Source: an uncultured Candidatus Saccharibacteria bacterium
GTDB lineage: Bacteria > Patescibacteriota > Minisyncoccia > Phycocordibacterales > UBA918
Length of the DNA: 64,000 nucleotides
Assembly: GCA_964552045.1 (NCBI GenBank)
Contig: CAZKFF010000001.1
Coordinates: 64,120-128,119 of the forward strand
Reading direction: 5' to 3'
Shown: piece by piece, positions 44,707 to 64,000 of the stretch
Layout: every line of letters starts with the position of its first letter
Position numbering within the stretch: the stretch's first letter is position 1
Position numbers and translations under genes: made by a program
Notes under the pieces: generated by a model
Told to the model about the DNA's origin: nothing
What the model saw: only the letters and a program-made list of their open reading frames with translations
Databases searched by the model: none

Positions 44707-46407
44707 CTACTTCCGCTTTGCGAGCACTGCGAGGATGAAAACCACGCAACACAGCGCGATGCACGCCAGGAAGAACGGGTGCACGAAGAACAAGGGCAGG
44801 CCGGAGATGACCGCAGCCCCGGTAGTACTGCTCTCGATGAAGACAAAAGATGCACAGAGCAAACCGGTACAGAACAGCACGATACACAGTACTTTCAGGG
44901 CAGCAACGGCTGTGTGACGAGTCATCTTTTTACGCACGATCACATACACAAGCAATAACAGAAGCCCGAGGGCAATCGCCCAAAAGAAAGGCCCTGTAGT
45001 GTAGAAAATCCGCTCCGTACTTCCCGACAAGCCTGTGGGCGATAATGGTGCGCCTGCAAGGAAACGGTACGAGCCTTCAACCTGCTGCATCTTCTGAGTC
45101 TTGTGGTCAAACACGGTAACGACAACCGGATAGACTCCGGCTGTGCGAAGCGGTGCTATATGTGCTTCATAGTCTGTCTTGTCCTTGTTGATGCGCAGGA
45201 GGAACGAGAACGTGAGATTCTGATCCACCGGATGCGTGAACGTCACGCGGACGGTCTTCAGATGTTCCGGGAGCTTTTCATATGCTATGCGCAGAAGAAA
45301 CGGTGCATTCGCATCAAGCGTGCCGCCCTGAACCTGTGCGCCATTCTGTATGACTTCGATATCGCTAAACGACAGCGGGAATGCCGGATAATGCTCGGTG
45401 TCACCGCTGGTTGCAATGGCCTGTTGCGCTGCGGCAACCACCGCGCCTGAGGAAATGTTGCCCTGCGTGTCGTACGCAAATACCGTATAGTACTGCGCGT
45501 CATATTTTGAAAGTGCCCGGCTGTCTGAAAAGACTTCGGCATCTCCCTGATACGCGATGAACCCGTCATACGGATCATCCGGATAGAACAAGTGGCTCCG
45601 CACAATGCGCACAAAGGCGAAATCGGGATCGCTTGGGTTCTCCCATGAAAGCTCCACATCATTGCCAGACAGAGCCGCGCGCAAACCGGAGACATTCGAC
45701 GGCGGCGTTATGTCGGGTGCTTCAAGTGTTTTGAATTCTCCTGATGAAAGCGCGTGCCTGCGCCCGTCGCGGTCAAAGCCGAGCAGCTGATAAGAATAGG
45801 TCGTACCGGGCTCCAGATCGGTGATTACAGTCGAGTGGGTATGCTTGAAGAGCTCGTTTGAGACGAACCCGAGTTCATATGCTGCGGTCCTGCCCCAGCG
45901 CAGTTCAAACTGTGCATAGCCTCTTGTCTGCCATTCCACCTGTACGGTTCGGATATCCGGGATGACATCAAAATGGATCAGGTACAGATCGCTTCCACCG
46001 CCTCCATCGTCAGACACAGGCGCAGGTATGTCCAACGTAGTGGTGGAAACTGCCGCTGACGATGACGAGAAGTTTTCGGATGTATCGAAAGCGGTCACAA
46101 AATAGCTGTACAAGGTGTCCGCAGTCAGGCCGGTATCCGCATAGGTGGTCAAAGATGTGGTTGCAATCTGGATTGCATCACGGAAGACCTGGTATCCGCC
46201 AAGCACGGTATCGTCAGTTGCGGCATTCCATGAAAGGTCGATCTGCGAAGAAGCAACCGGCGTTGCGCTTAGTCCTGTCGGAGTCGTGGGCGGATTGGCG
46301 TCCCCCACTATACGCATGCGTACATTGAACTCGTCCGTCTGTGCCTGCGCTGCAAAAACGCAGACGAAGAGAAATACAGCCACATGTATGCAGAGTCTGG
46401 AGATCAT
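44707..46407 (-). CDS. surface protein with fibronectin-type-III-like domains and C-terminal membrane anchor(s)
   Basis: Signal peptide MISRLCIHVAVFLFVCVFAAQA. FN3-like PPTTPTGLSATPVASSQIDLSWNAATDD...YSYFVTAFD. C-terminal FYTTG, then TM, then RKK, then further TM segments. Start overlaps the upstream gene stop. Confidence 0.6.
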   Translation of the reverse strand: MISRLCIHVAVFLFVCVFAAQAQTDEFNVRMRIVGDANPPTTPTGLSATPVASSQIDLSWNAATDDTVLGGYQVFRDAIQIATTSLTTYADTGLTADTLYSYFVTAFDTSENFSSSSAAVSTTTLDIPAPVSDDGGGGSDLYLIHFDVIPDIRTVQVEWQTRGYAQFELRWGRTAAYELGFVSNELFKHTHSTVITDLEPGTTYSYQLLGFDRDGRRHALSSGEFKTLEAPDITPPSNVSGLRAALSGNDVELSWENPSDPDFAFVRIVRSHLFYPDDPYDGFIAYQGDAEVFSDSRALSKYDAQYYTVFAYDTQGNISSGAVVAAAQQAIATSGDTEHYPAFPLSFSDIEVIQNGAQVQGGTLDANAPFLLRIAYEKLPEHLKTVRVTFTHPVDQNLTFSFLLRINKDKTDYEAHIAPLRTAGVYPVVVTVFDHKTQKMQQVEGSYRFLAGAPLSPTGLSGSTERIFYTTGPFFWAIALGLLLLLVYVIVRKKMTRHTAVAALKVLCIVLFCTGLLCASFVFIESSTTGAAVISGLPLFFVHPFFLACIALCCVVFILAVLAKRK

Positions 46408-47165
46408 AAGGGCAGTGCGGTTACTGTTGTTGTGGCAACATACGAGCCGGGCGCCTGGATGACCGACCCCCCCACCCCAACACGGAAGCGGATCGATGTC
46501 GTCGCGCCTGTGGGATGATTGGCGCTTCCGTGAGACGCAATTATTTCAGGTGCGGTAGAAAGACCGTCCCAGCATGCAAATGGCGTTTCTCCGGAGCCGG
46601 TATTGCAGGACGACCCATTGTCCTTAAAGCGCTGCACAACGTCAGCGCCTTCGGGAGTGTAGCCCAAATGCGCGTCAGCTGCGCCAGTTTCGAACGAGAA
46701 GTCCGGATCGCCCTGCGGTGCATAATCTGCGATCGCATCGGGTCCTTTCTGCATAGCCGGACTGTCTGATGCGGCAATGGAAAGCGCATAGCCGGAAGGA
46801 CTGTCGGTGATGACCGTAACAGTGGTCGATCCGTTCGCTATGCCGCCTGACACACCCGGAATCGACGGAGAGAGCGCAATATCCGATGACGCGCTGAGCG
46901 CGATGTATACCTCCTGCATCTGCTGATATCCCGCCTTCAATGCGTAGTTCGTACTCGTGGACACACCGCTTGCAAGTTCTCCCGCAGTGGATTCCAAGAC
47001 ATAATTGGTTGAAGTGGAAAGCCCGCCACTGAAGTTGATGCTGTCGCTCTGGATCTGAAAGTTACTGCTCTCCATCACCTGCGCGCCGGCACAATGAAGG
47101 CTGGCTACGACCAAAAGTGTAGCGATACTTGCTTGAGATAATGGCGAGAATAATTCTCTCCACAT
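46404..47165 (-). CDS. secreted beta-rich protein, paralog A
   Basis: Signal peptide. Shares the blocks DNGSSCNTGSGETPFACW and ATTSIRFRV with the 48278..48964 gene. Confidence 0.55.
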   Translation of the reverse strand: MWRELFSPLSQASIATLLVVASLHCAGAQVMESSNFQIQSDSINFSGGLSTSTNYVLESTAGELASGVSTSTNYALKAGYQQMQEVYIALSASSDIALSPSIPGVSGGIANGSTTVTVITDSPSGYALSIAASDSPAMQKGPDAIADYAPQGDPDFSFETGAADAHLGYTPEGADVVQRFKDNGSSCNTGSGETPFACWDGLSTAPEIIASHGSANHPTGATTSIRFRVGVGGSVIQAPGSYVATTTVTALPL

Positions 47166-47173
47166 GGCACAGG

Positions 47174-48262
47174 TTACTTAGACTTTCGTTTAAACTCGAA
47201 ATTTCGTGCAAAGAAGCGAATTATGAAGAAGACGAGGAAGAGTCCGAGGAATACCGGCAATACGATCTTCCACGGAAGCACCCAGAAGGTTATGGTCTGC
47301 GTATCGATAATGTCATCATACCCGCGGTTGATGTGTGCAGTTGCTGTGTACTTGCCGATGAGCAGCTCACGGTTCCAGGAGATCTCCCGCGAACGCAGCG
47401 ATTTCGGCAATGCAAACCACGGATCAAGCTCAACGAAGCCGACCTCCTCATTGAAGAGGTTCGTAATCCTGATCTCTCCGTACGGATTCAGGTGGAGGTC
47501 TCCTTTGTTCTCGTACAGTATCTGAAAATTGATCGGGCCTTCAGTGAAGAACTGCTGATCGGGTACCGTAGCAAAACTGTGCAACTCTCCTGCTATCTCC
47601 GTTTCTCCAGGAATGGTCAAGAAAAAAAGCGTTCCTACACGGGAAATGATAGCTGAAGACGGTGAGGCACCATTCGTTTCAGCAATGTCGGCCTTCTTCG
47701 AAACGGTTGTAACAAGCACACTGCCGTAGCGTCCGCCCGGTTCAGCATTTGGAGGGACTGCAACAGTTACTGGAATACGAGCCCGTTGATTGTGTTTAAG
47801 CGTCAGCTTCTTGGTCGGAAGCTGTATATAGTCTTTGAGCGTATAGGGACCCCTGTCATCACCGAGAAGCACGACAGGTGTCCGAGGATCATCGGAGCCG
47901 GTTGCGTCTTCAACAAACAGTTCAAACTCGCGTTCCTCGCCTGTTCTGTTTGAGACGATGATCTCAACAGTCTTAGATGAGCCGGGAGCGACCGTGAGTT
48001 CAGTCTTGCCCGGTCCGACCACAAAGTCACCAGGAACCTCGTCCGACGCAGAGGTGAGCATTTCGGTTGAGTATCCGGCCTGGGCAGGAGTTTGAACGGT
48101 TCCGGCCTCCTGGGTAGGATCCCCTTCCATAGCGTCTGTGCCAGTTGCTGTTTCCTGTGCAGAAGCCGGAAGGCCGCCGAGCAGCATGGCTGCAAACAAA
48201 ACAACAACTACCGCACACACAGAGGCGGTAGTTGCTGTCTTAAAGGAGTGACCATTCATCAT
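47174..48262 (-). CDS. cell-surface protein with N-terminal signal peptide and C-terminal TM anchor + basic tail
   Basis: Signal ...VCAVVVVLFAAMLLGGLPASA. C-terminal LPVFLGLFLVFFIIRFFARNFEFKRKSK. Architecture resembles DUF916/DUF3324-type surface proteins (inference). Confidence 0.55.
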   Translation of the reverse strand: MMNGHSFKTATTASVCAVVVVLFAAMLLGGLPASAQETATGTDAMEGDPTQEAGTVQTPAQAGYSTEMLTSASDEVPGDFVVGPGKTELTVAPGSSKTVEIIVSNRTGEEREFELFVEDATGSDDPRTPVVLLGDDRGPYTLKDYIQLPTKKLTLKHNQRARIPVTVAVPPNAEPGGRYGSVLVTTVSKKADIAETNGASPSSAIISRVGTLFFLTIPGETEIAGELHSFATVPDQQFFTEGPINFQILYENKGDLHLNPYGEIRITNLFNEEVGFVELDPWFALPKSLRSREISWNRELLIGKYTATAHINRGYDDIIDTQTITFWVLPWKIVLPVFLGLFLVFFIIRFFARNFEFKRKSK

Positions 48263-48277
48263 TAGAATGATTTTATG

Positions 48278-48964
48278 CTAGTTAGTTGTGGCGGTCAACG
48301 TAGCAGTTGCTGTGTAAAATCCGGTTGAAACTGCAGGACTTGGATTGGAAGGCACCAGAACGCGGAAGCCGATTGTGGTTGTTGCTCCTGAAAGCGGTGT
48401 TGCGGTACTTCGACTAATGATCGTTTCTGCTGCGTCATCAGGATCGAGCCAACATGTGTTTGCCGTATCCCCGGAACCAGTATTACATGCAGAGCCATTG
48501 TCTGCGAACGAAGGATCAAGATCAGAAGATGATGAGGCTGCGACCGTATAACCAAACTGTGCATACGTCTCAGCGCCGAAACCATAATCCGGTACGCCGA
48601 CAGCTGTTGGATTGTAGTTTGAGATATATCCTCCGCCGCCATCCTTTGTCATGGCAGTCGTGCTTGAAAATGCGATGGTCATATTATAGCCGGCTGTATT
48701 GTTGGTATTCACGCGGACCGTATACGAACCGTCTGATTGACCTCCAGTGAGACCAGCAATGTTTGGAGACATAACCACATCAGTTGATGTTGCGATGAAG
48801 GCGATCTCAGCAGTGATCTCCTGGGTCACTTCAAATGTATCGGTTGCCTGAGCCAGTCCTACCTGCGGCTCAAGCATGAAGAATGAAGCAAGCGCCAACA
48901 GCGACGCGAGCGTTGCGGCAACCAGTGCGCCAAAGGTTGAATGCCTGATAAGTGTAAGGGTCAT
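48278..48964 (-). CDS. secreted beta-rich protein, paralog B
   Basis: Signal peptide. Conserved blocks DNGSACNTGSGDTANTCW and ATTTIGFRV are shared with paralog A. Confidence 0.55.
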   Translation of the reverse strand: MTLTLIRHSTFGALVAATLASLLALASFFMLEPQVGLAQATDTFEVTQEITAEIAFIATSTDVVMSPNIAGLTGGQSDGSYTVRVNTNNTAGYNMTIAFSSTTAMTKDGGGGYISNYNPTAVGVPDYGFGAETYAQFGYTVAASSSSDLDPSFADNGSACNTGSGDTANTCWLDPDDAAETIISRSTATPLSGATTTIGFRVLVPSNPSPAVSTGFYTATATLTATTN

Positions 48965-49099: not shown

Positions 49100-49119
49100 T
49101 GGCCCAATCCTACTACGGA

Positions 49120-50355: not shown

Positions 50356-50366
50356 ATGATCAGGGG

Positions 50367-51440: not shown

Positions 51441-51599
51441 AAAGTATGTAGCGCACCTACAGACAGCACAATCAATGATAAGCATCGCTGTGGGTATTCT
51501 GCATCTGCGCTTAAACTCTCCCTATAGTATAAGCCACATCCCTAACTCATGCGCTGTAAAAGGAAGGGCGGATGTGGATTACTCCCAAAGTGAGTGGGG

Positions 51600-54500
51600 C
51601 TATATTTCGCCGCCGCCGCCGCCACCGCCGCCGCCTGCCTGGGTATACGGCTTTACCTGAATGGCATCGACCTTGACCGTATTCTGATCCGGCTGGTCAA
51701 TGACACGGACGAAGAAGTTGCCGCCTGAGAGGTCACTTGGACTCCAGCTGCGGCCCCAGGTATCGGACGCACCGCCGAGCGTATAGACTGCGTCGCTTCC
51801 CGTGAGCACGGATGTTGCCTTTGTCGCCGTCACACTTTCGTCGCCATTCCAGGAAAGTGCCACCTGAATCGTTCCCGCCCCGGTTGAACCGGACGCTTCA
51901 AGCTTCACTTCGATACCGGTCACCGTATTCCCTGCCGGCACATTGAAGCCGAAGACACTGTACGACTGACGAAGGTCCGCCGATGCAGCCGTTGCGTAGA
52001 CGTCGTCGGAGGTAAGCGCATTGCTGCCGTTTGTCCACTCATTGTAGAGTTCTCCGGTTGCGGTCGGCGCTTTGAAGCCGGGTTCGTTGCCAATCTGCTC
52101 TCCATTATCCTCTTCCCCTACTCCGCCGCCGCCGTTGTTGCCGCCGCCGCCGATGTCACCATCACCTTCTGGTGCATCGTCTCCCACTTCAGCGCTGAAG
52201 AGACTGCCGCCGCCCTTATTGCCGCCGCGGATATGCTGCACTGAGGTCACACCTCCGAGCGGGACAACAACTCCTTCAGTCGTCGCGCCCGTGCCGGTAA
52301 CACCGTTACGATTGAGGTCAATGGTCAGATACTCATTGGTATGTACGCCCGTGACATCTCCCGTAAGGACATAGTCTTTGGTCGTCGTTGCATCCCATGA
52401 TGTTGAGAATGTTATTGTCCCTGATTGTCCCGTGATGGCTAACACGCCAGTGCCGCCGATCTGGTTGTCAGAAGCGTCTGCCGTACCGTTGCTGTTATTG
52501 TCGCGGTAGAGCTTAAAGTCCCCAATATTACTGCTATCGATACGATGGATGCCGGAGAGTGTAAATACAGCTGACGTGATCGTTGCATTCTCTCCAACAG
52601 GTGCAAGATTAAAGGCAAACAATGGTTCGTCGCTCTTGTTCTGGTAGCTGAATGCATTGTCGATCTGACCAGCGGTGTGATCTGCAAGGTTTGCTGCACC
52701 ATAGATAGCCACAGTCTTATCATCATGAACGCCAGTAGCTGCCACAGGATCAAGTGTATAAGCGTTGATATCGTCACCCGTATAACCCATCACATAGAGC
52801 GTGGTACCGTCGTTGTTGAAGAGTGCCGCAGCAGGAGCAGATTCCTGTGCGGCGACCGAGAACGCGATCTCGTCGAAGGTCGCCGTTGAGATGTCGTACG
52901 GAGTGGAGAGCGTATAGGCATTGATGTCTTGTCCTGTTAAGCCCACAACATACAATACAGTACCGGTGTTGTTGAAGAATATATCAGAGGGGGCGTTTTC
53001 TTCTGAAAGGACCGAGAACGCGATCTCGTCGAAGGTCGCCGTTGAGATGTCGTACGGAGTGGAGAGCGTATAGGCATTGATCTCCCCACCAGATGCTTGC
53101 ACAACATACAGGACGGTACCGGTGTTGTTGAATTCCATATCATAGGGGAAGGATCCCTCTGCCGAAACCGAGAACGCGATCTCGTCGAAGGTCGCCGTTG
53201 AGATGTCATACGGAGTGGAGAGCGTATAGGTATTGATGTCGAGACCAGAAGTACCCATCACATAAAGAACGGTGCCGGTGTTATTGAAGAGCATTGAACG
53301 GGGGTTGATTTCCTGTGCGGCGACCGAGAGAGCGATCTCGTCGAAGGTGGCAGTTGAGATGTCATACGGAGTGGAGAGCGTATAGGCATTGATGTCATCA
53401 CCGGTAGAACCCATCACATAGAGCGTGGTACCGTTGTTGTTGAAGAGCATTGCACGAGGAGCGTCTTCTTGTGAAGAGACAGAAAGGGAGATTCCATTGA
53501 AGATGGCAGTTGAGACATCGTATGAACCTGACTCTTGATCAACAACAAACGACAGCGTCGATGTTGGCGCAGCAAGTGCGTTAAATTGTGTAAATGAAAG
53601 CCCCGAAATAGTGAGGGTATCCCCTCCTGAGAAGTCATTCGAGACGGGTACGACGAGTGTGGCACCGCTGTCCTCATACGAAACAGGATTAGAGACTTTG
53701 CCTGAGGCGGTTCCTCCAAAGACTGCAGTGGTATCGGTCGTATCCCACTTCATATTTGTCTTTGTAGTGTCAATGGTAATACGAAGGTCATTCGCTGCCG
53801 TAATCGTCGGGGTCTCGGCGTCGGTTATGGTAATGGCGGCAATAGACGTGGTCGCCTGGCCGTATCCAAAGATCTGGTTCGATGCTGAGGAAATCGTCCC
53901 CGCCCCGCCTCCACCTGCTGGCGCTGTGATGTCCCAGCAGTCGTTATTGCCGCTGTCGGTCGAGCTGGCTGCAGTGATGGTGCTTGCGCTGTCGCATGCG
54001 TTTGAGTCCATCACATCGACATACGTAACGGATATCTGGGTATCTGCATCGAGGCCCCACTGGGTTCCGTCCTGTGTTGAACGGAGTACGATCTCGTCAT
54101 TCTCTGCGCCGTCTATCTGTATAGAGGCGAAGGTTGAGGTCGCATCCGCAGGGAATTCCAGAGTAATACCGGGAGTGATCGCTACCAATTTTGCAGCCTC
54201 TACCGGATCAGTGAAGGTGGTGACCGGAACTCCGCCAGTATTGCCGGGCGAAGTCATCACGAGATCGGTACCAGATTGCGCTACCGCAACAAACGTACCG
54301 TTGCCGTAGGTCACTGACCGCCAAGAACTCGCTGCTCCTTCTTGTCGAGCAGTCCACGTGATTCCGTCAGGCGAGGTCATCACTTGATCAGTGCCACCGA
54401 GAGATACCGCAACAAACAGGCCGTTGCCGTAGGAAACGGAATGCCAGAAGGAAGCTTCTGTCGCCGAATGCGAGGTCCACGTGATGCCGTCCTCTGAGCT

Positions 54501-57500
54501 CATGACTCGGTTGGTGCCGGCTTGCGCGACGGCCACGAACGTGCCATTGCCATGCACCACGGAAATCCATGAACTTGCTTCAGCAGCACGTGCCGTCCAG
54601 GTGATGCCGTCAGGAGAGGTCATGACGCGGTTGGTGCCATCTTGAGAAACAGCGACAAATAAGCCATCGCCGTAGGTTACAGAAGTCCATGTGTTCGCCT
54701 CCGTTGCGGATCGTGCCGTCCACGTAATGCCGTCAGGAGAGGTCATGACGCGGTTGGTGCCGTCGGAAGAAACAGCGACAAACAGGTCGTCGCCGTAGGT
54801 GACTGATCGCCACTGGTTCGCTTCTGCGGCTGTGCGTACAGTCCAGGTAATGCCGTCGGGCGAGGTCATGACGCGGTTGGTGCCATCTTGAGAAACAGCA
54901 ACAAATAAGCCATCGCCGTAGGTGACTGATCGCCACTGGTTCGCTGCTGCGGCTGTGCGTGCAGTCCAGGTAATGCCGTCGGGCGAGGTCATGACGCGGT
55001 TGGTGCCCGTGAGTGCTACCGCGACGAACTGGCCGTTGCCGTAGGTGACTGAGTGCCACTGGTTCGCTTCTGCGGCTGTGCGTACTGTCCATGTTTGTCC
55101 GCCTTCGACCACTGGCGTATCCACTGAAGCGACCTCAAGCGTACCGAAGCTGGAGCTGCCGGTCAGGTTCCCACTGAAGGTTTGTGTGCCTCCATGTATG
55201 GTCGTCGTACCGTTCCCCCAGTCTATGGTCCCATTGTTCTCATAATCACCCGCAATCGAGAACTGCGACGGTGCTGTTACATACGTGTCCTCTGTAATGC
55301 TCAAGTCACTGGTCGAAGCATTGTTGGCAAACACCACTTCGCCGAGGAGCTCCCCGTCTGCAGAAGTCATGACGCAGTTTGTGGTACAGGTCGCTCCTGC
55401 GCTTGTCTGCTGTGCAATCGCGACAAATTTATTTTCTCCGTAAACAATATCCCACCATTTATTGACATTTATCGATGCGCGAGGTGTCCAATTTGCTCCA
55501 TTGTCACTAGAGGTCATGATCTGGTTTGTGCCGTCAGGTGAGACCGCAACAAAGAGGCCGCCGCCGTACGTGACTGACTGCCAGCTGTTCGCTTCATATC
55601 CGCTCGATACAATACTCCATGTGATGCCATCCTCTGAGGTCATGACATTATCATAGGCAACCGCGACAAACGTGCCACCGCCGTATCCCAAGCCGTACCA
55701 TGTACTACCCGGCACATTGCGCGATGTCCACGTGATGCCGTCGGGCGAGGTCATGACCAGATCGGTCCCCGTCGATGCGATCGCCACGTAGAGGCCTTCT
55801 CCGTAGACCACTCTCTCCCATTTGTTTGCCGCCGCAGCAGTACGTGCAGTCCACGTGATGCCGTCGGGCGAGGTCATGACGCAGCTGGTGCTGCAGGTGG
55901 CCGTACCATCGATATTGTTGTGGGCAATCGCAACAAACTGCCCTCCTCCATACGTTACCGAGTACCATTCGTTCTGCGCAGCTGCTGACCTGTTGGTCCA
56001 CGTGACTCCGTCAGGTGAGGTCATCACCTGATTGGTGCCGTTGCCAGCAACCGCAACAAACAGGCCTTCGCCATAGGTCAGGCTATTCCACGAGTTCGCC
56101 TGCGATGCTGAACGAGAGGTCCACGTGATGCCGTCAGGCGAGGTCATGACGCGGTTGGTGCCCGTGTATGCAAGCGCAACAAATGTGCCGTTGCCGTAGG
56201 TTATCGCAGACCAGGTACTGTTCTCCGATTGATTTTGTGCTGTCCAGTTCGCCCCGTCCGGTACGAACAGCTGCGGGGCATCAATGGTAATATCGTTGAA
56301 TGCCGAGCTTCCCGTCATGTTGCCCGAGAGAGTTGTCGTACCCGTGTAGGTTGTGGTTTCTGAGTAATCAAGACTGTACGGGAAAATATCCGAGGCAGAC
56401 TCTCCGTGGACATACATCTTCGAACCGTCGGGTTTGAACTCAAAACCATCAGGGAAGTCCTCCTGACTCGTAACCGAGATTGAAGTTCCGTCATATACTG
56501 CCGTGGTGACATCCCACGGGGTTGAAAGCGTGTATGGGGAGATATAGTCGTTGAGATAACCGCTGACGAACATCTTCGTTCCATCGTCGTTGAAGGCCAC
56601 ATCCTGGATATTCGTCTGCTGTGTATTGACCGAGAAGGACTTGCTGTCGTAGCTCGCACTTGAGATATCCCACGGGGTTGAAAGCGTATACGAATAGACC
56701 CGATTGTTTGCATCACCGCCGATGTACATGCGCGTGCCATCCTGCTTGAAGGTCATACCGAATGGTGTTGCATCCTGCGTCGTTACTGAAAAACTGACAC
56801 TGTCGTAGCTTGCTGTGGTGACATCCCATGCAGAAGACAGTGTGTACTGGAAGACGCGGTCATTGCCGGAACCGAGCGCAAACATCTTCGTACCGTCGCT
56901 TGAGAACGAGACTTTTTCGACAAAGCTATCCTGGGATGCAGTTGAGAATTCATTGACGTAACTCGCTGTGGTGACATCCCATGCAGAAGACAGCGAGTAT
57001 TCGGCAACGGCATCGCTGTTGTAGCCGTTGATGAAGAATTTCGTGCCGTCAGGCTTGAATGCGAGGCTTGTCACCTGCGACTCCTGCGAGGTCACCGAGT
57101 ACGCCACACCATCATAGGTTGCGGTGGTGATGTCCCAACTGGCAATCGCTGTTGTTGACGCTGTGGTGGTCCCGACAATATAGGTGAGGCCGCTTCCGCT
57201 GTCGAAGGTGCCGTTATTGGTGTAGTCGCCGGTTATGGTGAGCACCTCCGGCGCTTCCACAGTCGCGCCCGAAGCGATCGTAAAGTCGCTCGTCGAGGCA
57301 TTATCAGAGAACGTCTTAGTGCCATTTCCGGAGAAAGAGACTGCATTGAATGCGCTCGATCCGGTCATGCCGCCCGAAAACGCTTGTATGCCTGAACCGT
57401 CGAAATTGACGATACCGTTATGATGCGCGAAGACGCCGGTGTTCGCATAGTCGCCAGAGATCGTCAATTCAGCCGGAGCGATAAGCGTCGTCTGTCCGCC

Positions 57501-60500
57501 GATGGTGAGATCAGTTGTGGATGCTGTGGAACTAAGACTGATCGTATTGCCGTATGTACCGTCGCTGGAGTAGAGAACCTGATTGGTCCCATCCGTACTT
57601 GCCGACACAAACTTCCCCTCACCATAGGTCATCGAAATGAAGAAGTTCGTATTGGGAGTCGTGACCTCAGTCCACGTGATGCCGTCAGGCGAGATCATAA
57701 GGTATGTACTGCCCGTGAGCGGGTCTCCCAGTGCGGCAAAATATCCACCGCCGTACGCAAGTCCATACCAATCGGAATTGCCCGGAGTTATTCTCGTAGT
57801 CCACGTGATGCCGTCCTCTGAGGACATAGCGGTATCGGTCTCACTGACCGCAACGAATCTCCCTTCTCCATACACAACCCGCTGCCATCCGCTCGCGCTA
57901 GCCGCACTGCGGCTGGTCCAGGTAATGCCATCGGGTGAGGTCATCACGCGGTCAGAACCGGTACTCGCGACCGCCACGAAGAGGCCGTTGCCATAGGTCA
58001 CGTTTTTCCATTGATTTGCCTCAGGCGCGACCACCCCCGTCCAAATGATGCCATCTTCAGAGACCATCACGCGATATCCGCCGCCAGTAGTGTTACAGCT
58101 TGATGCATTCACGCCGCAGGCCACTGCTACGAAGAGGCCATTGCCGTAGGTGACGCTACTCCAGTTGTTCATCGCAGCTGCGGTACGGCTGGTCCAGGTA
58201 ATGCCGTCAGGCGAGGTCATGACGCGATTCGATCCAGTACTGGCGACTGCCACAAACAATCCGTCTCCATAGGTAACCCACTGCCATGAGTCTCCAACCG
58301 GCTGGGTTCGCGTAGTCCAGGTGACCCCGTCTGGAGATGACATGACATCTCCGTCCCATGAGACCGCTACGAAGGTTCCCCCACCGTACGTGATTGCGCT
58401 CCATTGTGATGATTTTGATGCGCTTCCCTCTTGCCATACGGCTGCACTATTAAAGAATTCACCCGATGAGGTGGCGGTCACATTGCCGAGTGTAGATGAG
58501 CCAGTGAGTGTTCCTGACACCGTACTGCTGCCCGTGATCACCAGTAGGCCATCATTTGAAAAGGTTCCGTTATTGATGAGGTTGCCGTTGACGGTGAGCG
58601 TTCCCGACGGGGCATTCAGTGCAGCCGTACCGCCGATGGTGAGATCGGAGGTCTCCGCGTCGTCCGCGAAGGTGATGTCGCTGTCCTCTGCACTGATTGT
58701 GAACACATTGAAGGCGTTCTCCCCCGTCATATTCCCTGCAAAGACCTTATCAGTGTCCGGCGTTCCGGTGCCTTCTGTTCCTGTCGTGTACTGGTACACC
58801 GCATCATCATCAATATCGAGTATGAACATCTTTACGCCGTCATCGCTGAACTTCACCTGCAATCCTCCACTGACCTGTGCTATTGGCGAGAAGCTGTTCG
58901 TGTAGCTTGCAGTACTGATATCAAAAGGCGTAGAAAGTGTATATCCGTACACATCCTGCCACCCGAAGAAAAAGAGTTTGGTTCCGTCAGTACTGAAATG
59001 TATACCTGAAACACTCGTATCCTGTGCCGAGAAAGAGAAACTCTCTTCATATACGGCAGTTGATACATCCCATGCCGGAGAAAGGGTGTATGCATGGATA
59101 CTGTCGCTGTTATCGCCAGCGATATACAAGCGTGTTCCGTCTGCGTTGAATGCAAGACCAAAAGGTTTTGTTTCTTCTGTGAAGAAGAACGCGTCTACAT
59201 AGGTTGCAGTAGTGATGTCGTACGGGGTGGAGAGCGACAGTTCTGCGACCGCATCACTTGAGTCCCCAGTGAAATACACTTTTGTACCGTCGTCCTTTAC
59301 GTATACCGCATTCGGAAAATCATCAAGTCCACCCACATTGAATGCGCCCTGGTATGAAGCGGTGCTGATATCCCACGGGGTACCCAGCGTGTACCAGCGG
59401 ATATTGTCAGCATCATAGCCAAGCACATAAAGATGTTCCCCATCACGGCTAAAATCCATTCCGTAGGCATTGGTTTCAGTAACGCCGAGCGAGACCGCGT
59501 CATACGAAGCGCTTGAGAGATCGTAGCCAACTGTATTGTTCTCCACCGCGACAGTCACTGTTCCATCGCCAGCGGTAAATACGCCGTCATTGGTGTAGTC
59601 TCCGTTGATCGTCAATACGGACGGAGCTACGACAGTCGAGGTTGCGGTGATAGAAAGATCGTTCACTTCCGCATCTGTTGAAAATGTCTGTGTCGTCAGG
59701 GCGTACGAACCGCTCTCTGAGGTCATGACTCGATCAGTACCATCAAGCGAGACCGCGACGAACTTCCCTTCCGCAAAGGTGACCGAACTCAGTGAATTTG
59801 CAACAGGCGTAGTTGCAAGCGACCACGTGATGCCGTCGGGTGAGGTCATGATACGGTCGTTTGTCGTATGGAAGCTTGAGACCGCTACATAGACCCCACC
59901 TCCGTATGCCACATCAACAACATTGCTGATGTCCGGCTTCGTGCGCGAGGTCCAGGTGGTGCCGTCTTGCGAGGTCATGATGTCTCCCCCCCATGAAGTG
60001 GCCACGAAGAGGCCGTTGCCGTAGCCGAGTCCGACCCATTGTTGGGCCGACGCAGCGGTGCGATTCGTCCAGGTGGTGCCGTCAGGTGAGGTCATAACGC
60101 GGTTCGTACCATCCTGAGCGACGGCGACGAAGATGTTGTTCCCATATGCCACACTATTCCATGTGTTCGCCTGGGAAGCGCTCTTCATGCTCCAGGTGAT
60201 GCCGTCGGGCGAGGTCATGACACGATCGGTCCCCGAGCCCGCGACTGCGACGAAGGTGCCGTTGCCATAGGCGACGGATTTCCACGCGCTCAGGCTGACG
60301 CTCGTCGTATCCCATGTAATGCCGTCGCTCGAATATGCCGCCCGATCGGTTCCGTCGCTCGAGACGGCGACAAACGTATCATTTCCGAATGTGACGGATT
60401 CCCACGTGTTGTCAGGGAGTGAATCGTCGTGCTCTACCCAATTCTCGCCATCAGTTGAAGTCATAACGCCCGTGCCGCTTCCGACTGTCACAAACAGTCC

Positions 60501-62690
60501 ATTACCGTAGGCGATGGATCTCCATGTCCAGGTGGGGACGTTGTGCGTTGCCCATGTCTCTCCGTCATGTTCAAAACTTGAGACCAACAAACGCCGCGCT
60601 CCGTCTGCAGTCATCACGCGGTTGGTTCCGGAGTCTGCAACCGCAACCAGCAATCCGTCTCCGTAGACCACGGATACCCACGAGCTTGCGTTCGCATCAT
60701 CAACGGCCGTCCACGTGATGCCGTCGGGCGAGGTCATGACCTGATCACTAACATCTGCCACTGCAACAGCCACGAAGTAATCTCCTGTATGCGTCACTGC
60801 TGTCCACGATCCGGTTTCGGGAACAGTACGGACTGTCCACGTGATGCCATCAGGAGAACTCATGACGCTATGGGTACCCTCGTTGAGAGAGCCTACCGCT
60901 ACATACATGCCGTCGCCGTAGGCTACGCTATTCCACCAGTTGTGTTCGGCTGCGGTTTGATTCGTCCATGTGATGCCGTCGGGCGAGGTCTCGACACGAT
61001 TGTCACCCACAGCCACAAACTGTCCATTGCCGTACGTCACAGAGTAGATACCATTCCCCGAGGAAGCCGTTCCTGAAACCCACGAAAGGCCGTCATCTGA
61101 ATACATTGCCGTACCCGTGAATGAGAGCGCCACAAATCTGCCCTCGCCATAACTGATCGAGGACCAGGCTTGCGCTGAAGCGGCACTGCGTGACGTCCAC
61201 GTGATGCCGTCGGGTGAGGTCATGACGCGGTTGGTGCCGTCTTCAGACACTGCCACAAATAAACCTTCCCCGTAGGTCACTTGTGTCCAGGTATTTGCTG
61301 CAGCAGCAGTGCGGTTCGTCCACGTGATGCCGTCGGGCGAGGTCATGACGCGGTTGGTGCCGCTTTCAGCCAAAGCAACAAACAGGCCTTCACCATAGGT
61401 GACTGATTTCCACAGATTGGCCTGTGATGCGCTGCGTGCAGTCCAATGCGTACCATCGTGTATCACCAGTTCCGTTGAGGAGCCAGTTATCAGGTTCCCC
61501 ATTTCGACAGCATCGCCGCTTATGGTGGAGTCTGTCGGCATCTGCGTTTCACCGGAAGACAGGTCAAGTGTACCGTTGTTTCCCAGGTCTCCCCCGAACA
61601 CTGTGGTGGTGGCACCAGTGAACGAGTCTCCATCACCCACATAGAATTTCTGTCCCTCTTCGATAAAGAGCATGCCTTCAACTTCATTGGCTATGAATGG
61701 AACATCACTATCTTGTAGCCCATCGTAAATAGCCATGTCGTCGATGGTCACCGCATCGGTGTCCTCATTGCGGACTATGACATGATCCTTATAGAGATCC
61801 AATCCCGATACAGCATTGGAGGCATCTGCGAGCGTAGTTATCACGGCAGCTCTGGTAGCCGGATCGCCATCGACCCATGTGACCACCGGCGTGCCCGCGG
61901 TAATGCCGGATGAGTTTGGTGTTATGGTCCAGTCTCCACTGCTGTCTGTTGTCGCAGACGCAACAGTCACTGGAGTGGTTGTACCTATGGCGATCTTAAT
62001 GGTCTTTCCAGATGTAATAGCCGTACTGCCTTCATCGGAATACAGAGTTCCCGATAAGCTCAGCGGAGGAAGCGTATAGTCGACCTCAATAGTGACATAG
62101 TCCACGTCGACATCAGCATTTGCAGCGGTAGCGAGTACGCCGAGCGCAATCCCGAAATCTGGATCTTTTATCCAGCTTGCTGTCAGCGTATTTCCCCACA
62201 GATTGGACGAACCTCCTTTCGTGATAACGGTGGAATTCGTGGTCGTCAGTGCCGTTGGGGTCGAGCACAGATTTGTGCCGACTTTTGCCCCGGAAGCATT
62301 GAGCAGCTGGCAGAGATCGAGCGAGCCGGACCCGTTTCCTGACCTGTAGAATGCATTGACACGTACGGTTATTCCATTGATGGTCGAGCCATCCGGAATG
62401 GAGCTGAAGTCAAAACCGGTCGCTTTAAGTACAGTGGTCTGGTCTCCGCTATCGTACTGCGATGCTGTCACATTGGCGGTGGCTCCATCATCTGCATAGA
62501 TGTTCGTTGGGGTGACCCAGTCATTGTCTGACCACGGTGATTCAGAAACGCCTGTACCCGAGGTCGGAAATACTGCACCAGTGGTTGCCGCTTCTGCTGT
62601 ATGCGTTCCAAAAAAGAACAGCGCGCTGAGCAGGAGCACATATATATGCATCTTTGCCTGCGTATTCTGTTGTAATAAATGAGTTTTCAT
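51600..62690 (-). CDS. giant secreted surface protein (3696 aa) built from Asp-box/BNR and beta-propeller-like repeats
   Basis: Signal peptide; a more likely start is the ATG at 62649-62651, giving MHIYVLLLSALFFFGTHTAEA. Dozens of S-x-D-G-x-T-W Asp-box units in repeats of about 40 aa (NRVMTSPDGITWT.R.AA.AN.W.SVTYGNGLFVAV). Blocks of about 50-aa repeats (YTLSTPWDISTASYD..SFSV..Q........F..DGTK.Y). Related N- and C-terminal domains. Gly-run at the C-terminus. Confidence 0.8.
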   Translation of the reverse strand: MKTHLLQQNTQAKMHIYVLLLSALFFFGTHTAEAATTGAVFPTSGTGVSESPWSDNDWVTPTNIYADDGATANVTASQYDSGDQTTVLKATGFDFSSIPDGSTINGITVRVNAFYRSGNGSGSLDLCQLLNASGAKVGTNLCSTPTALTTTNSTVITKGGSSNLWGNTLTASWIKDPDFGIALGVLATAANADVDVDYVTIEVDYTLPPLSLSGTLYSDEGSTAITSGKTIKIAIGTTTPVTVASATTDSSGDWTITPNSSGITAGTPVVTWVDGDPATRAAVITTLADASNAVSGLDLYKDHVIVRNEDTDAVTIDDMAIYDGLQDSDVPFIANEVEGMLFIEEGQKFYVGDGDSFTGATTTVFGGDLGNNGTLDLSSGETQMPTDSTISGDAVEMGNLITGSSTELVIHDGTHWTARSASQANLWKSVTYGEGLFVALAESGTNRVMTSPDGITWTNRTAAAANTWTQVTYGEGLFVAVSEDGTNRVMTSPDGITWTSRSAASAQAWSSISYGEGRFVALSFTGTAMYSDDGLSWVSGTASSGNGIYSVTYGNGQFVAVGDNRVETSPDGITWTNQTAAEHNWWNSVAYGDGMYVAVGSLNEGTHSVMSSPDGITWTVRTVPETGSWTAVTHTGDYFVAVAVADVSDQVMTSPDGITWTAVDDANASSWVSVVYGDGLLVAVADSGTNRVMTADGARRLLVSSFEHDGETWATHNVPTWTWRSIAYGNGLFVTVGSGTGVMTSTDGENWVEHDDSLPDNTWESVTFGNDTFVAVSSDGTDRAAYSSDGITWDTTSVSLSAWKSVAYGNGTFVAVAGSGTDRVMTSPDGITWSMKSASQANTWNSVAYGNNIFVAVAQDGTNRVMTSPDGTTWTNRTAASAQQWVGLGYGNGLFVATSWGGDIMTSQDGTTWTSRTKPDISNVVDVAYGGGVYVAVSSFHTTNDRIMTSPDGITWSLATTPVANSLSSVTFAEGKFVAVSLDGTDRVMTSESGSYALTTQTFSTDAEVNDLSITATSTVVAPSVLTINGDYTNDGVFTAGDGTVTVAVENNTVGYDLSSASYDAVSLGVTETNAYGMDFSRDGEHLYVLGYDADNIRWYTLGTPWDISTASYQGAFNVGGLDDFPNAVYVKDDGTKVYFTGDSSDAVAELSLSTPYDITTATYVDAFFFTEETKPFGLAFNADGTRLYIAGDNSDSIHAYTLSPAWDVSTAVYEESFSFSAQDTSVSGIHFSTDGTKLFFFGWQDVYGYTLSTPFDISTASYTNSFSPIAQVSGGLQVKFSDDGVKMFILDIDDDAVYQYTTGTEGTGTPDTDKVFAGNMTGENAFNVFTISAEDSDITFADDAETSDLTIGGTAALNAPSGTLTVNGNLINNGTFSNDGLLVITGSSTVSGTLTGSSTLGNVTATSSGEFFNSAAVWQEGSASKSSQWSAITYGGGTFVAVSWDGDVMSSPDGVTWTTRTQPVGDSWQWVTYGDGLFVAVASTGSNRVMTSPDGITWTSRTAAAMNNWSSVTYGNGLFVAVACGVNASSCNTTGGGYRVMVSEDGIIWTGVVAPEANQWKNVTYGNGLFVAVASTGSDRVMTSPDGITWTSRSAASASGWQRVVYGEGRFVAVSETDTAMSSEDGITWTTRITPGNSDWYGLAYGGGYFAALGDPLTGSTYLMISPDGITWTEVTTPNTNFFISMTYGEGKFVSASTDGTNQVLYSSDGTYGNTISLSSTASTTDLTIGGQTTLIAPAELTISGDYANTGVFAHHNGIVNFDGSGIQAFSGGMTGSSAFNAVSFSGNGTKTFSDNASTSDFTIASGATVEAPEVLTITGDYTNNGTFDSGSGLTYIVGTTTASTTAIASWDITTATYDGVAYSVTSQESQVTSLAFKPDGTKFFINGYNSDAVAEYSLSSAWDVTTASYVNEFSTASQDSFVEKVSFSSDGTKMFALGSGNDRVFQYTLSSAWDVTTASYDSVSFSVTTQDATPFGMTFKQDGTRMYIGGDANNRVYSYTLSTPWDISSASYDSKSFSVNTQQTNIQDVAFNDDGTKMFVSGYLNDYISPYTLSTPWDVTTAVYDGTSISVTSQEDFPDGFEFKPDGSKMYVHGESASDIFPYSLDYSETTTYTGTTTLSGNMTGSSAFNDITIDAPQLFVPDGANWTAQNQSENSTWSAITYGNGTFVALAYTGTNRVMTSPDGITWTSRSASQANSWNSLTYGEGLFVAVAGNGTNQVMTSPDGVTWTNRSAAAQNEWYSVTYGGGQFVAIAHNNIDGTATCSTSCVMTSPDGITWTARTAAAANKWERVVYGEGLYVAIASTGTDLVMTSPDGITWTSRNVPGSTWYGLGYGGGTFVAVAYDNVMTSEDGITWSIVSSGYEANSWQSVTYGGGLFVAVSPDGTNQIMTSSDNGANWTPRASINVNKWWDIVYGENKFVAIAQQTSAGATCTTNCVMTSADGELLGEVVFANNASTSDLSITEDTYVTAPSQFSIAGDYENNGTIDWGNGTTTIHGGTQTFSGNLTGSSSFGTLEVASVDTPVVEGGQTWTVRTAAEANQWHSVTYGNGQFVAVALTGTNRVMTSPDGITWTARTAAAANQWRSVTYGDGLFVAVSQDGTNRVMTSPDGITWTVRTAAEANQWRSVTYGDDLFVAVSSDGTNRVMTSPDGITWTARSATEANTWTSVTYGDGLFVAVSQDGTNRVMTSPDGITWTARAAEASSWISVVHGNGTFVAVAQAGTNRVMSSEDGITWTSHSATEASFWHSVSYGNGLFVAVSLGGTDQVMTSPDGITWTARQEGAASSWRSVTYGNGTFVAVAQSGTDLVMTSPGNTGGVPVTTFTDPVEAAKLVAITPGITLEFPADATSTFASIQIDGAENDEIVLRSTQDGTQWGLDADTQISVTYVDVMDSNACDSASTITAASSTDSGNNDCWDITAPAGGGGAGTISSASNQIFGYGQATTSIAAITITDAETPTITAANDLRITIDTTKTNMKWDTTDTTAVFGGTASGKVSNPVSYEDSGATLVVPVSNDFSGGDTLTISGLSFTQFNALAAPTSTLSFVVDQESGSYDVSTAIFNGISLSVSSQEDAPRAMLFNNNGTTLYVMGSTGDDINAYTLSTPYDISTATFDEIALSVAAQEINPRSMLFNNTGTVLYVMGTSGLDINTYTLSTPYDISTATFDEIAFSVSAEGSFPYDMEFNNTGTVLYVVQASGGEINAYTLSTPYDISTATFDEIAFSVLSEENAPSDIFFNNTGTVLYVVGLTGQDINAYTLSTPYDISTATFDEIAFSVAAQESAPAAALFNNDGTTLYVMGYTGDDINAYTLDPVAATGVHDDKTVAIYGAANLADHTAGQIDNAFSYQNKSDEPLFAFNLAPVGENATITSAVFTLSGIHRIDSSNIGDFKLYRDNNSNGTADASDNQIGGTGVLAITGQSGTITFSTSWDATTTKDYVLTGDVTGVHTNEYLTIDLNRNGVTGTGATTEGVVVPLGGVTSVQHIRGGNKGGGSLFSAEVGDDAPEGDGDIGGGGNNGGGGVGEEDNGEQIGNEPGFKAPTATGELYNEWTNGSNALTSDDVYATAASADLRQSYSVFGFNVPAGNTVTGIEVKLEASGSTGAGTIQVALSWNGDESVTATKATSVLTGSDAVYTLGGASDTWGRSWSPSDLSGGNFFVRVIDQPDQNTVKVDAIQVKPYTQAGGGGGGGGGEI
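54300..55100 (-). repeat. near-identical ~120-nt tandem coding repeats inside the giant gene
   Basis: ccaggtaatgccgtcgggcgaggtcatgacgcggttggtgcc... recurs about every 120 nt. It encodes TVRTAAEANQWRSVTYGDGLFVAVSQDGTNRVMTSPDGITWT units. Looser copies appear elsewhere at 55700-61400. Confidence 0.8.
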
Positions 62691-62700
62691 ACGTTATGCG

Positions 62701-63984
62701 TTATGCAGTGGGGGTCTGTTGCGGTTCTTCCTGCGGGCTTTCTTCGGCCGGTGCTTCTGCTGTCGCTTCTTCCTGTGGTTCTTCCGGCTGTACCTGTTCT
62801 TCTTCTGTGATTTCTTCAGATGCTTCCTGCGGCGGTTCAATCTCTTCTGTAGGTGTTTCTTGTTCCTGCGGTTGCTCCTGTTGCGGTTCTTCAGTTTCTG
62901 GTTCTTCCTGCGGCGGTGTTTCTGGCTGTTCCTGTTCCCCTGTACTGCTTTCTATCTGCGTATCTTCTTCCTCCTGCGCCGCTGCTTCGCCGCTTCCCTC
63001 TGGGGACGCGGGCGCTTCCTGCGGCGGCGGTGCTACCGGTTCTCCTGAACCCGAACCGCCTTCTGGACGATTAACCTCCTGCAGAAGCGCGCGCAAATCA
63101 TCGGCAGTGAGACACACGCCGTCAACGCAGAGCTGATTCTCGACGTACACATTCTCTGCACGCAAGCCCGTGATCGAGAGGACGCCATCGACGAATCCCT
63201 GCGCAAGCGTCTTAATGCGGCTCCAGAGTGTCTCTTCACCGTCGCCGTCAAGCACGAGATTAGTCGATGTGGAAGTCAGCTCCGCAAGGATCGTTTCGGT
63301 GTTTGCAGGCTGCCAGCCCAAGTTCACAAACATAAGCGCCTGTCCCACACGCACCTCTTCTCCGTCTGCAGTCTCCATCTCTGCAGCATCTTCGCGAGCA
63401 AGTTTACGAAGCGCCTGCTGCATGTTTTCGTGCTCATCAGAGATCGCCGACTCAACGGATTGGAAGCGTTCAACATCGCGCGGCGTGCATTCCTCTTCTT
63501 TCTCACCAAGTGCGCCGCCGCCGCCGAAGTAGCAGCCGTCATTGATGCGCTCGTCTTGCTCAACAGAGTCAGGCGTGGTGTCAGGTTCAGCGATGTCATC
63601 GCCGAACTGATCGATGAATCCCTCCGAGTAGGCATAGTCGCCGTTGAAGTCCTCAAGCGCAACGCCGACCACAGTGCCGCTCTCTGTTGCTTTCATGCCG
63701 ATTCCCGGAATAGACGAGAGCATGATCTTGTCTCCGGCGTTGATCGGTCCGTTCTCTGTTGAGAGCTTGACCGGAACACGTCCCTTAAGTGCAACTGGAT
63801 ATCCTTCCTGGCCGGAGATAAGCGACGAGTCATCGAATCCGAGCGTGAGGCCCGGTTTGGTCGAGACCACTCCGATGATATTGCCTGCATTGGTGCTGTC
63901 TGCCTTTTCAATACTGAGGATTCCTGCGGTTGCGATGATCTCGCCCGGCTGCAGGTCTTGTGACGAGAAGTACATTTCGGCCAA
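62701..63984 (-). CDS. hypothetical protein with Glu/Pro/Gln-rich C-terminal tail, immediately upstream of the giant gene (N-terminus may lie beyond the window)
   Basis: Long ORF ending 10 nt before the giant-gene start. Structured N-terminal part. C-terminal 110 aa of low-complexity EEPQQEQ repeats. Confidence 0.5.
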   Translation of the reverse strand: MAEMYFSSQDLQPGEIIATAGILSIEKADSTNAGNIIGVVSTKPGLTLGFDDSSLISGQEGYPVALKGRVPVKLSTENGPINAGDKIMLSSIPGIGMKATESGTVVGVALEDFNGDYAYSEGFIDQFGDDIAEPDTTPDSVEQDERINDGCYFGGGGALGEKEEECTPRDVERFQSVESAISDEHENMQQALRKLAREDAAEMETADGEEVRVGQALMFVNLGWQPANTETILAELTSTSTNLVLDGDGEETLWSRIKTLAQGFVDGVLSITGLRAENVYVENQLCVDGVCLTADDLRALLQEVNRPEGGSGSGEPVAPPPQEAPASPEGSGEAAAQEEEDTQIESSTGEQEQPETPPQEEPETEEPQQEQPQEQETPTEEIEPPQEASEEITEEEQVQPEEPQEEATAEAPAEESPQEEPQQTPTA

Positions 63985-64000
63985 GTCTGAGTTGCCGACT

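Follow-up and report, generated by a model that had tools for sequence, protein, structure and literature searches.

A giant protein of two alternating beta-propeller families with a polyglycine C-terminus, and its candidate role at the surface of Patescibacteria

What does a protein of 3,696 amino acids (aa), built largely of beta-propellers, do for a candidate-phyla-radiation (CPR) bacterium? Its gene lies at 51600-62690, on the minus strand, of a 64,000-nucleotide stretch of contig CAZKFF010000001.1 (assembly GCA_964552045.1, positions 64,120 to 128,119). We call this whole stretch the window, and all positions are numbered within it. On balance, we lean towards the giant being a multivalent surface adhesin, the large, variable and outward-facing subunit docked on a scaffold like that of WxL clusters and conserved in Paceibacteria-type Patescibacteria. 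Surface retention, docking through the C-terminal CAP domain and tail, and ligand binding or adhesion are steps that we infer. To our knowledge, host recognition and attachment by ultrasmall Patescibacteria outside Saccharibacteria are largely unknown, and we know of no adhesin for Paceibacteria.

By itself, a giant surface protein rich in propellers comes as no surprise in a CPR genome, where one is to be expected (PMC5220378). An earlier note, made from the letters of this DNA, had described the repeats. What is new beyond them is a CAP domain followed by a poly-Gly-x-Ile (polyG) end, found across a family of giants, and a downstream gene cassette that contains a WxLIP homologue; both had gone unseen in that note. 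Among published papers and curated families we found none that describes the giant's family or its domain combination, and the literature yielded no account of CPR proteins that end in poly-Gly, nor any of Patescibacteria with WxLIP clusters.

One reading frame, eight propellers

The region reads as a single uninterrupted open reading frame (ORF) with an ATG start, just as the earlier note had it, and begins 10 nt past the stop codon of the upstream gene. An open frame of 3,696 codons cannot be due to chance ((61/64)^3696 ~ e^-177). The giant is a real gene, and its modules follow in the order signal, N-terminal CAP (N-CAP), beta-rich region, A1, A2, B1, A3, B2, A4, A5, M, B3, C1, Gly linker, C-terminal CAP (C-CAP) and G9-E-I, where A and B denote two types of propeller. 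Eight beta-propellers, ordered A A B A B A A B, were delimited in total with self-built hidden Markov models (HMMs). With D+E at 10.6% and K+R at 3.3%, the protein is very acidic, and it is rich in Thr, Ser and Gly. Its 10 Cys residues lie in 5 close pairs, as expected of an extracellular protein.

Type A comprises 35 blades of ~41 aa with the consensus W.SV.YG.G.FVAV...G.NRVMTSPDGITWT. These fall into five blocks of exactly seven, on the minus strand like all features of the giant. A1 (aa 404-702) and A2 (aa 703-995) together hold 14 blades at 59706..61481, and A3 (aa 1410-1713) lies at 57552..58463. A beta-rich spacer of 81 aa separates A4 (aa 2143-2448) from A5 (aa 2530-2816), and the three together occupy 54243..56264. 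Every block begins with an isolated DG..W strand and ends with a truncated blade, the classic velcro closure of a propeller. AlphaFold, supplied with 72 homologues, modelled A5 as a closed propeller of 7 blades (predicted local distance difference test, pLDDT, 96.3; predicted template modelling score, pTM, 0.93), and the mean identity between its blades is 67%. In Foldseek searches the top match to type A was Ycf48 (template modelling, TM, score 0.74), and the best superposition was with virginiamycin B lyase (TM 0.86). Homologues of type A number more than 6,500. Many are secreted proteins of ~450-510 aa with T9SS, SLH or fn3 domains, and none among them bears a functional name.

The earlier note had read these blades as 40-aa Asp-box/BNR repeats. 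The blade length and an Asp-box stand, in a short form. The canonical S-x-D-x-G-x-T-W occurs in the giant with no exact copy and one near match (SSDNGANW, aa 2394), while [ST]-x-D-[GN]-x-x-W occurs in 30 copies. S-P-D-G-I-T-W, the type A motif, falls one residue short of the canonical form. In the A5 model it sits in the hairpin of strands 3 and 4, for example at residues 43-49, between E40-43 RVMT(S) and E50-52 T.R. A short Asp-box consensus, S-x-D-x-x-x-W, was described by Quistgaard & Thirup (PMC2716378), and we class the type A motif as a short Asp-box, not the canonical BNR motif. A Pfam scan with PF02012 and PF13088 had been proposed as a check on the BNR assignment. BNR (PF02012), BNR_2 (PF13088), PSII_BNR and Sortilin-Vps10 did not appear among the matches of the whole giant at E<=1 or of blocks A4 and A5 at E<=10; EPTP (PF03736; 88.9 bits vs a cutoff of 21) and DUF6242 (PF19755; 64.7 bits vs a cutoff of 29) matched the giant instead. 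The homologue P0207 does match Pfam BNR.

Type B comprises 15 blades of ~52 aa, with the consensus YTLSTPWDISTASY..SFSV..Q...P..F..DGTKMYV.G...D in a second self-built HMM. They form three blocks of exactly five, B1 (aa 1053-1305; 58776..59534), B2 (aa 1846-2108; 56367..57155) and B3 (aa 3054-3315; 52746..53531), each followed by a closing 'xYTL' strand. B3 lies between modules M and C1 and has near-identical blades (66% identity). Its model is a closed 5-bladed propeller of 20 strands (pLDDT 95.3, pTM 0.92), so that modelling of the repeat blocks, also proposed earlier, gave closed propellers for A5 and B3 alike. On these predicted structures we count two propeller folds as established, 7-bladed for A and 5-bladed for B.

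The earlier note had compared the ~50-aa blades with YVTN/lactonase-type propellers. The lactonase part of this comparison holds at the level of family models. Pfam Lactonase (PF10282) scores 64.3 bits on the whole giant against a cutoff of 21.7, and B2 and B3 alone reach 39-43 bits (39.4 for B2); B1 alone stays below the cutoff at 17.7 bits (E 0.0023). The blade number and the YVTN label do not hold. Lactonase and SGL families (PF10282, PF08450) are normally 6-7-bladed, and where a lactonase-type propeller would have seven blades each B block has five and a closing strand. The only NCBIfam model to align with the giant was 7_blade_YncE, at 11.5 bits against a cutoff of 400, and no YVTN or YncE model was reached. 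Foldseek matched B3 to 6-7-bladed propellers only, at TM ~0.5. The alternation of the two repeat types was likewise as noted earlier, but where at least three type A blocks had been seen there are five type A propellers.

Pereira & Lupas discuss 'highly symmetrical' propellers that were recently amplified (PMC9218822), and A5 and B3 belong among these because their blades are 66-67% identical. Nearly invariant positions in both families are core W/G/F/V, the Asp-box hairpin, and P/G/Y/L, and they recur in every blade. They look structural to us, and no catalytic signature stands out among the conserved positions of either family.

The C-terminal module and the downstream cassette

The last ~620 aa of the giant (M, C1, Gly linker and CAP) are 42-89% identical across the family, while the payload varies. 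Module M (aa 2817-3053; 53532..54242) carries one Cys pair and is 49-57% identical in the giants P0261, P0264, P0268 and P0271. Module C1 (aa 3316-3497), with the Gly/acidic linker that follows it (aa 3498-3535), lies at 52086..52745 and is 42-62% identical in related giants. C1 contains a D-x-N-x-x-G loop that resembles an EF-hand and aligns to one at E 1.6, which is not significant. C-CAP (aa ~3536-3684; 51639..52085) is 73-89% identical in the same four giants. It is followed by the tail A-G9-E-I-stop at 51603..51638, so the poly-Gly end that the earlier note reported is present; the last residues read ...YTQAGGGGGGGGGEI.

This tail recurs widely. A metagenome scan with a CAP profile found 254 related stretches, and our tail and locus counts refer to the best 80 of these loci. 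The same tail type is seen in 40 of the 80, where a G-rich run of 9-15 residues (mode 11) is followed by one residue x and then Ile. Ile is the terminal residue in 30 of 33 distinct poly-Gly tails. Nearly all CAP-terminated giants end [YH]-[HNT]-[QS]-[AT]-x-GGG-x-GGGG-x-[IV]-stop. In six further loci polyG-x-[VF] is retained but is not terminal, and another 40-50 residues follow it; in L107, L109, L112/L113, L114 and L161 these residues are poorly conserved. The extended tails hint at a propeptide, or at a processing site where most members stop. The tail itself could plausibly act as a free C-terminal Ile that docks on a flexible Gly tether, or as a processing site. It has no hydrophobic segment, and no NCBIfam sorting-signal model matched the giant. 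Known sorting signals (LPXTG, PEP-CTERM, PGF-CTERM, GlyGly-CTERM) combine a motif, a transmembrane helix and basic residues, a combination that the giant's end does not show. We also considered the poly-Gly run as a slippery homopolymer and dropped the idea because its codons are a mixture of GGC and GGT.

CAP occurs outside the polyG giants as well. Members of a second CAP clade (L148, L150, L153, L156-L160, L164-L167, L171, L178 and L181), mostly of 600-970 aa, end in ..SRDFSLDWVAVQVTYTP (..DWVAVQVTYTP) and have no poly-Gly tail; no WxLIP cassette lies downstream in any member with enough downstream sequence. CAP relatives of 30-40% identity are also found in 13 viral contigs (IMG/VR, L090-L102), and L088 (P0257) was noted besides. 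In the full-length viral cases, which are proteins of 170-660 aa, the domain is mostly N-terminal (MADTGFKSPT..), and some carry short C-terminal repeats (VKTINGVAIAS). The giant's C-CAP opens after the Gly linker with GFKAPTATGE, the same motif as this viral start. CAP may have been borrowed from phage proteins, or lent to them.

At the other end of the giant, the N-terminus looks like a Sec-type export signal, in agreement with the signal peptide proposed earlier. Residues 1-34 (62589..62690; Met14 is a possible alternative start) read, by eye, as MKTHLLQQNTQAKMHIYVLLLSALFFFGTHTAEA followed by ATTG, with a basic stretch, a 13-residue hydrophobic core IYVLLLSALFFFG and an A-x-A site, A-E-A/A. 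N-CAP (aa 35-207; 62070..62588) and C-CAP share 26% identity over 128 aa (E 7e-6), which bears out the claim that related domains stand at both ends. The beta-rich region that follows (aa 208-403; 61482..62069) is 57% identical to the same region of P0264. A motif common to the spacers that separate the propellers, ..ASTSDLTI....T..AP..LTI.GDY.NNGTF....GTV.F.G...Q..SG.MTG.SAF.., turns up in related giants as well. Caps, spacers, the beta-rich region, M and C1 gave no Pfam match above threshold. For caps, upstream protein, small proteins and propellers, PHROGs returned only families of 'unknown function'. A profile of the C-terminal module had no significant match in the PDB, and the whole giant sequence had none there.

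Family members differ in what they carry ahead of the C-terminal module. An exhaustive search that used A3, spacer and B2 (711 aa) as the query gave 39,917 representative proteins. Arrays of 1,000-7,000 aa made of A7 modules, B5 modules or both account for most of the best 150, and CAP is present in 18 of the 150, at the C-terminus in 17. At least nine others among the 150 combine A7 with B5, and most of those end in a C-terminal CAP. The A and B combination is recurrent, not unique, since these nine share it; the earlier suggestion that it may be undescribed survives as to papers and curated families. P0261 reads B10 A7 A7 B5 B10 CAP and P0271 reads B10 A7 A7 B5 A7 CAP. P0264, a positional orthologue of 3,280 aa, has another N-terminal domain, another ~390-aa module instead of A3, and no B3, while its CAP is 89% identical to that of the giant. 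Its segment at the A3 position (aa 1460-1870) contains a motif of the SSDGTTW type and resembles no part of the giant by BLAST. This looks like a module replacement within an otherwise collinear protein, and such shuffling is what would be expected of host-interaction proteins. Several polyG giants have no A or B module, so that the C-terminal module, not the propellers, defines the family.

Some members of the wider search set are extreme in their repeat content. P0258 has 65 consecutive B blades in 3,363 aa. P0260 has 14 evenly spaced B5 modules in 6,246 aa and lies on an 8.6-Mb contig, hence not in a CPR genome. P0263 has seven A7 modules, and the 7,024 aa of P0270 are all A blades. A scan of the contigs of GTDB species representatives with the giant's last 381 aa found no relative, so no orthologous locus comes from that source.

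Downstream of polyG giants lies a conserved cassette of four genes, all on the minus strand in the window. Small secreted protein 1 (228 aa; 48278..48964) has a homologue of 36-51% identity right after the giant's stop in more than 20 loci. A WxLIP-like protein of 362 aa (47174..48262) follows, with a signal, a DUF916/PGBD domain, a second beta domain and a C-terminal transmembrane helix. Next come small secreted protein 2 (253 aa; 46404..47165), a paralogue of the 228-aa protein at 41% identity, and the last gene, which encodes an fn3 protein of 566 aa with C-terminal membrane segments (44707..46407; fn3 E 1.8e-10) and has a homologue of 33-43% identity at the same position in 16 loci. By tblastn, genes like these four follow the giant's stop directly and in this order in polyG loci. 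When only loci with 2.5 kb or more of sequence downstream are counted, and each is scored for a WxLIP-like gene within 4 kb downstream, the cassette is present in 16 of 22 polyG loci and in 4 of 23 other CAP loci (Fisher p 2.8e-4). The latter four are probably extended-tail variants.

The 362-aa protein ties this cassette to a known family. Pfam WxLIP_PGBD (PF06030) matches it at 31.2 bits against a cutoff of 27.3, and 13 of 14 family members match. A profile of the family aligns with the solved structures of EfmWxLIP1 from E. faecium (9i25/9i1y) at E 4e-9. From these matches, its PGBD, its typical size and its C-terminal transmembrane helix, we regard it as a genuine WxLIP homologue. Profiles of the small cassette proteins had no significant match in the PDB.

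Three further genes adjoin the giant, also on the minus strand. The upstream partner gene, whose 3' part lies at 62701..64000, runs off the window and ends in the acidic, low-complexity tail noticed earlier, which is rich in E, P and Q. Its product has a conserved ~120-aa domain (..DLAEMY....L.PGE....G.....STKPG...G....PVALKGRVPVK..), and PHROGs supplied its only family match, one of unknown function (E 5e-8). In L089 (a 1,956-aa protein), L104 and L131, relatives of it are found directly upstream of other giants; at the P0264 locus the start of the giant is overlapped by a gene of 714 aa. Directly downstream is a 372-aa PD40 protein (50367-51485; PD40 E 8.7e-10), the propeller neighbour of the earlier description. 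It is followed by an exported Cys/Pro-Thr-rich protein of 411 aa (49120-50355) with no Pfam or PHROG family, made of Pro/Thr-rich linkers and two ~60-aa Cys-rich repeats (C..DG.T..DG..R.FY...G.TC....C.DG.LSG....Y..C). A promoter and terminator scan of 44400-64000 found no more sites than in shuffled sequence.

The rest of the window carries pentose-phosphate genes and genes for DnaE, GyrB, PheT, SMC, RNase R and ribosomal proteins. Its GyrB shares 82-84% identity with that of Patescibacteria metagenome-assembled genomes labelled Kaiserbacteria, Paceibacterota or Parcubacteria. Gene content and GyrB together place the window on a chromosome and its host in the Patescibacteria (Paceibacteria-like), which supports the CPR context assumed before. 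Rfam found only a tRNA-Thr in the window, far from the giant. Several other genes are unusual. A 381-aa ORF at 42431-43576 (minus strand) fuses RpiB to ribulose-phosphate 3-epimerase, which are separate in the related locus L087, and beside it a transketolase is split into two genes of 297 and 329 aa (40525-42410, minus strand). An M23 peptidase of the lysostaphin-type, Gly-Gly-cleaving family is fused to CBM96 at 15558-16814 (plus strand), 35 kb from the giant, whose poly-Gly tail is the sole reason for mentioning it. A 301-aa ORF at 8863-9768 (minus strand) holds both NusB and a NUDIX hydrolase domain. The GC content of 14001-16000 is 0.43, compared with ~0.52 elsewhere; this segment overlaps a 266-aa ORF without Pfam match and the start of the M23 gene.

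A candidate adhesin and the competing explanations

The adhesin reading can be laid out as a sequence of steps. The giant would be exported through Sec. Its eight rigid propellers, strung on short beta-rich spacers, would form a long, highly acidic molecule like beads on a string. The propellers would serve as multivalent binding modules, most likely for repeated polymers or glycans on the surface of a host or partner cell, and module shuffling would tune their specificity. To keep the giant at the cell envelope, its conserved C-terminus (M, C1, Gly linker, CAP and G9-x-Ile) would dock on the cassette products, namely the two small paralogues, the WxLIP/DUF916 membrane protein and the fn3 membrane protein. 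Such docking would have its parallel in Firmicutes, where WxLIP and small WxL proteins hold a large WxL protein by its C-terminal WxL domain.

Several observations weigh against this reading. Pfam WxL (PF13731) matches neither the giant, its CAP, the small cassette proteins nor 26 homologues of the small proteins (E<=1). The dual W-x-L motif is absent, and the small proteins have a single conserved Trp. Since no WxL domain is detectable, the WxL analogy rests on the WxLIP homologue and gene order. Pfam did not detect the second WxLIP domain (DUF3324/HBD) in the 362-aa family. In the window the PD40 and 411-aa genes separate the giant from the cassette, and both are absent at the P0264 locus. 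P0268 and six of the polyG giants have no cassette nearby. With no membrane anchor or known sorting signal, the giant could simply be released. Catalysis by the propellers is possible too, because the B5 fold is common to enzymes such as glutaminyl cyclase and GH43/62.

The last point leads to an explanation that we consider unlikely, in which the giant is a secreted multi-enzyme protein whose lactonase-, glutaminyl-cyclase- or GH43/62-like propellers degrade polymers of the host or the environment. Identity to glutaminyl cyclases and GH43/62 is only 7-11%, and no enzyme family is above threshold save the generic Lactonase repeat model. The structural look of the conserved positions also argues against it; as they are identical in every blade, they suit symmetric binding sites better than one active site. 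The type A homologues, moreover, are mostly unannotated secreted proteins. Quite unlikely, in our judgement, is a structural coat component, S-layer-like or part of a sheath, in which propellers are rigid building blocks for no specific ligand. A large, acidic, exported protein rich in Thr, Ser and Gly would suit such a coat, as would a conserved C-terminal module together with a conserved envelope-associated cassette. However, the payload varies strongly even between positional orthologues, and some polyG giants have no propellers, which makes a lattice-forming protein a poor fit. Nor does the giant match any SLH or S-layer family in Pfam.

The remaining two explanations concern where the ORF comes from, and we hold both to be very improbable. 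In one, the ORF is an artefact of assembly, either chimeric or with its repeats collapsed or expanded. The gene is rich in repeats, and a look-up of the exact giant sequence gave no record elsewhere. Logan assemblies of other runs contain the PD40 gene and the giant's last ~300-430 codons, and the two Logan contigs that were aligned match the 3' ~1.15-1.3 kb at 100% identity before they break off in the B3 repeats, close to the gene's longest exact internal repeat (72 nt, at 52854/53010, within the B3 array). Such a break is expected with a short-k assembler. At the DNA level the repeat copies have diverged, being mostly 60-80% identical and at most 90% over 125 nt. All eight propellers have a whole number of blades and a closing strand, and the modelled A5 and B3 fold confidently. 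P0264, independently assembled, is intact on a 57-kb Joint Genome Institute contig, flanked by the same neighbours, and its plan recurs in further giants of more than 2,000 aa, dozens in number. The diverged repeats, complete blade counts, exact Logan matches and intact P0264 make an artefact unlikely. The other explanation is a phage-derived or prophage receptor-binding protein, similar to a tail fibre. Against it, the gene stands amid housekeeping genes (GAPDH, pentose-phosphate, ribosomal proteins) in a position conserved across genomes, the giant has a Sec signal, and no phage structural genes are nearby; PHROGs were uninformative. All four explanations are less well supported than a surface adhesin.

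We hold more tentatively, and with some doubt, a wider reading of the family. In it, CAP and the invariant 'H-Q-A-G(9-15)-x-Ile-COOH' would be an unrecognised envelope-docking or processing signal of Patescibacteria, carried by a family of giants with exchangeable payloads (A7, B5 or other) on a WxLIP-like scaffold, the CPR counterpart of the WxL system. If this is true, the cluster becomes a prime candidate for the apparatus with which Paceibacteria attach to their hosts. The locus offers a concrete candidate, a conserved operon with a large subunit of shuffled propellers and what appears to be a true WxLIP homologue among the small subunits. Such giants can be found by a simple sequence feature, the poly-Gly-x-Ile end, which dozens of independent metagenomic loci share. 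Because the propeller families are very large and uncharacterised (more than 6,500 proteins for A, tens of thousands for both), a functional assignment would reach far.

Comparison with known systems

Type A resembles Ycf48/HCF136, EPTP/EAR and DUF6242 proteins in its 7 blades and in the conserved strand 3-4 hairpin of each blade. It differs from the Asp-box propellers of the literature, where one or two blades carry the motif (PMC2716378), in having a short Asp-box in almost every blade. Its identity to solved Asp-box-type structures is only 11-15%, and Pfam BNR models leave it unmatched. Type B shares only 7-11% identity with known 5-bladed structures, namely the YjiK C-terminal domain (3qqz), glutaminyl cyclases (3mbr, 3nok), GH43/GH62 and the phi11 RBP platform (5efv). 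Unlike these, the B blades are lactonase/SGL-like in sequence (PF10282, PF08450), and no catalytic residues were identified in them.

At the level of whole proteins, two groups come closest. RCC1-type giants of Oscillospiraceae are tandem-propeller proteins thought to bind host or prey surfaces (bioRxiv 10.1101/2023.11.21.568195), and surface proteins that carry beta-propeller, lectin and fn3 domains are a common feature of CPR genomes (PMC5220378). The giant is like them a very long extracellular protein of tandem beta-propellers. Here, though, the propellers are of other families, two types alternate, and there are a conserved C-terminal module and a conserved partner cassette, neither of which those papers describe.

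WxL clusters are the closest match in layout. They are defined by a WxLIP gene and at least two WxL-domain proteins within four genes, and in Firmicutes typically hold one or two small WxL proteins and one large one, whose C-terminal WxL domain anchors to the wall and whose N-terminal domains bind the host (PMC9772566, PMC10599100). With no detectable WxL domain or dual W-x-L motif, the present cluster falls outside this definition. The giant is 3-7 times longer than large WxL proteins such as LwpA and ElrA and is built of propellers, and its C-terminus is an unrelated or unrecognisable domain, CAP with G9-x-Ile. By inspection, as the cassette genes were not scanned with sorting-signal models, there is no LPxTG protein, and an fn3 membrane protein stands instead. 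The host belongs to Patescibacteria, whereas more than 91% of known WxL proteins are in Firmicutes. What the two have in common is a large exported protein with variable N-terminal domains and a conserved extreme C-terminus, two small secreted paralogues of ~190 aa when mature, and a ~360-aa WxLIP homologue with a C-terminal transmembrane helix, all within four genes. For the large protein the likeness is an analogy of layout, not homology. By that analogy, the Paceibacteria cluster plausibly works like a WxL cluster, with CAP and the polyG tail in place of the WxL domain.

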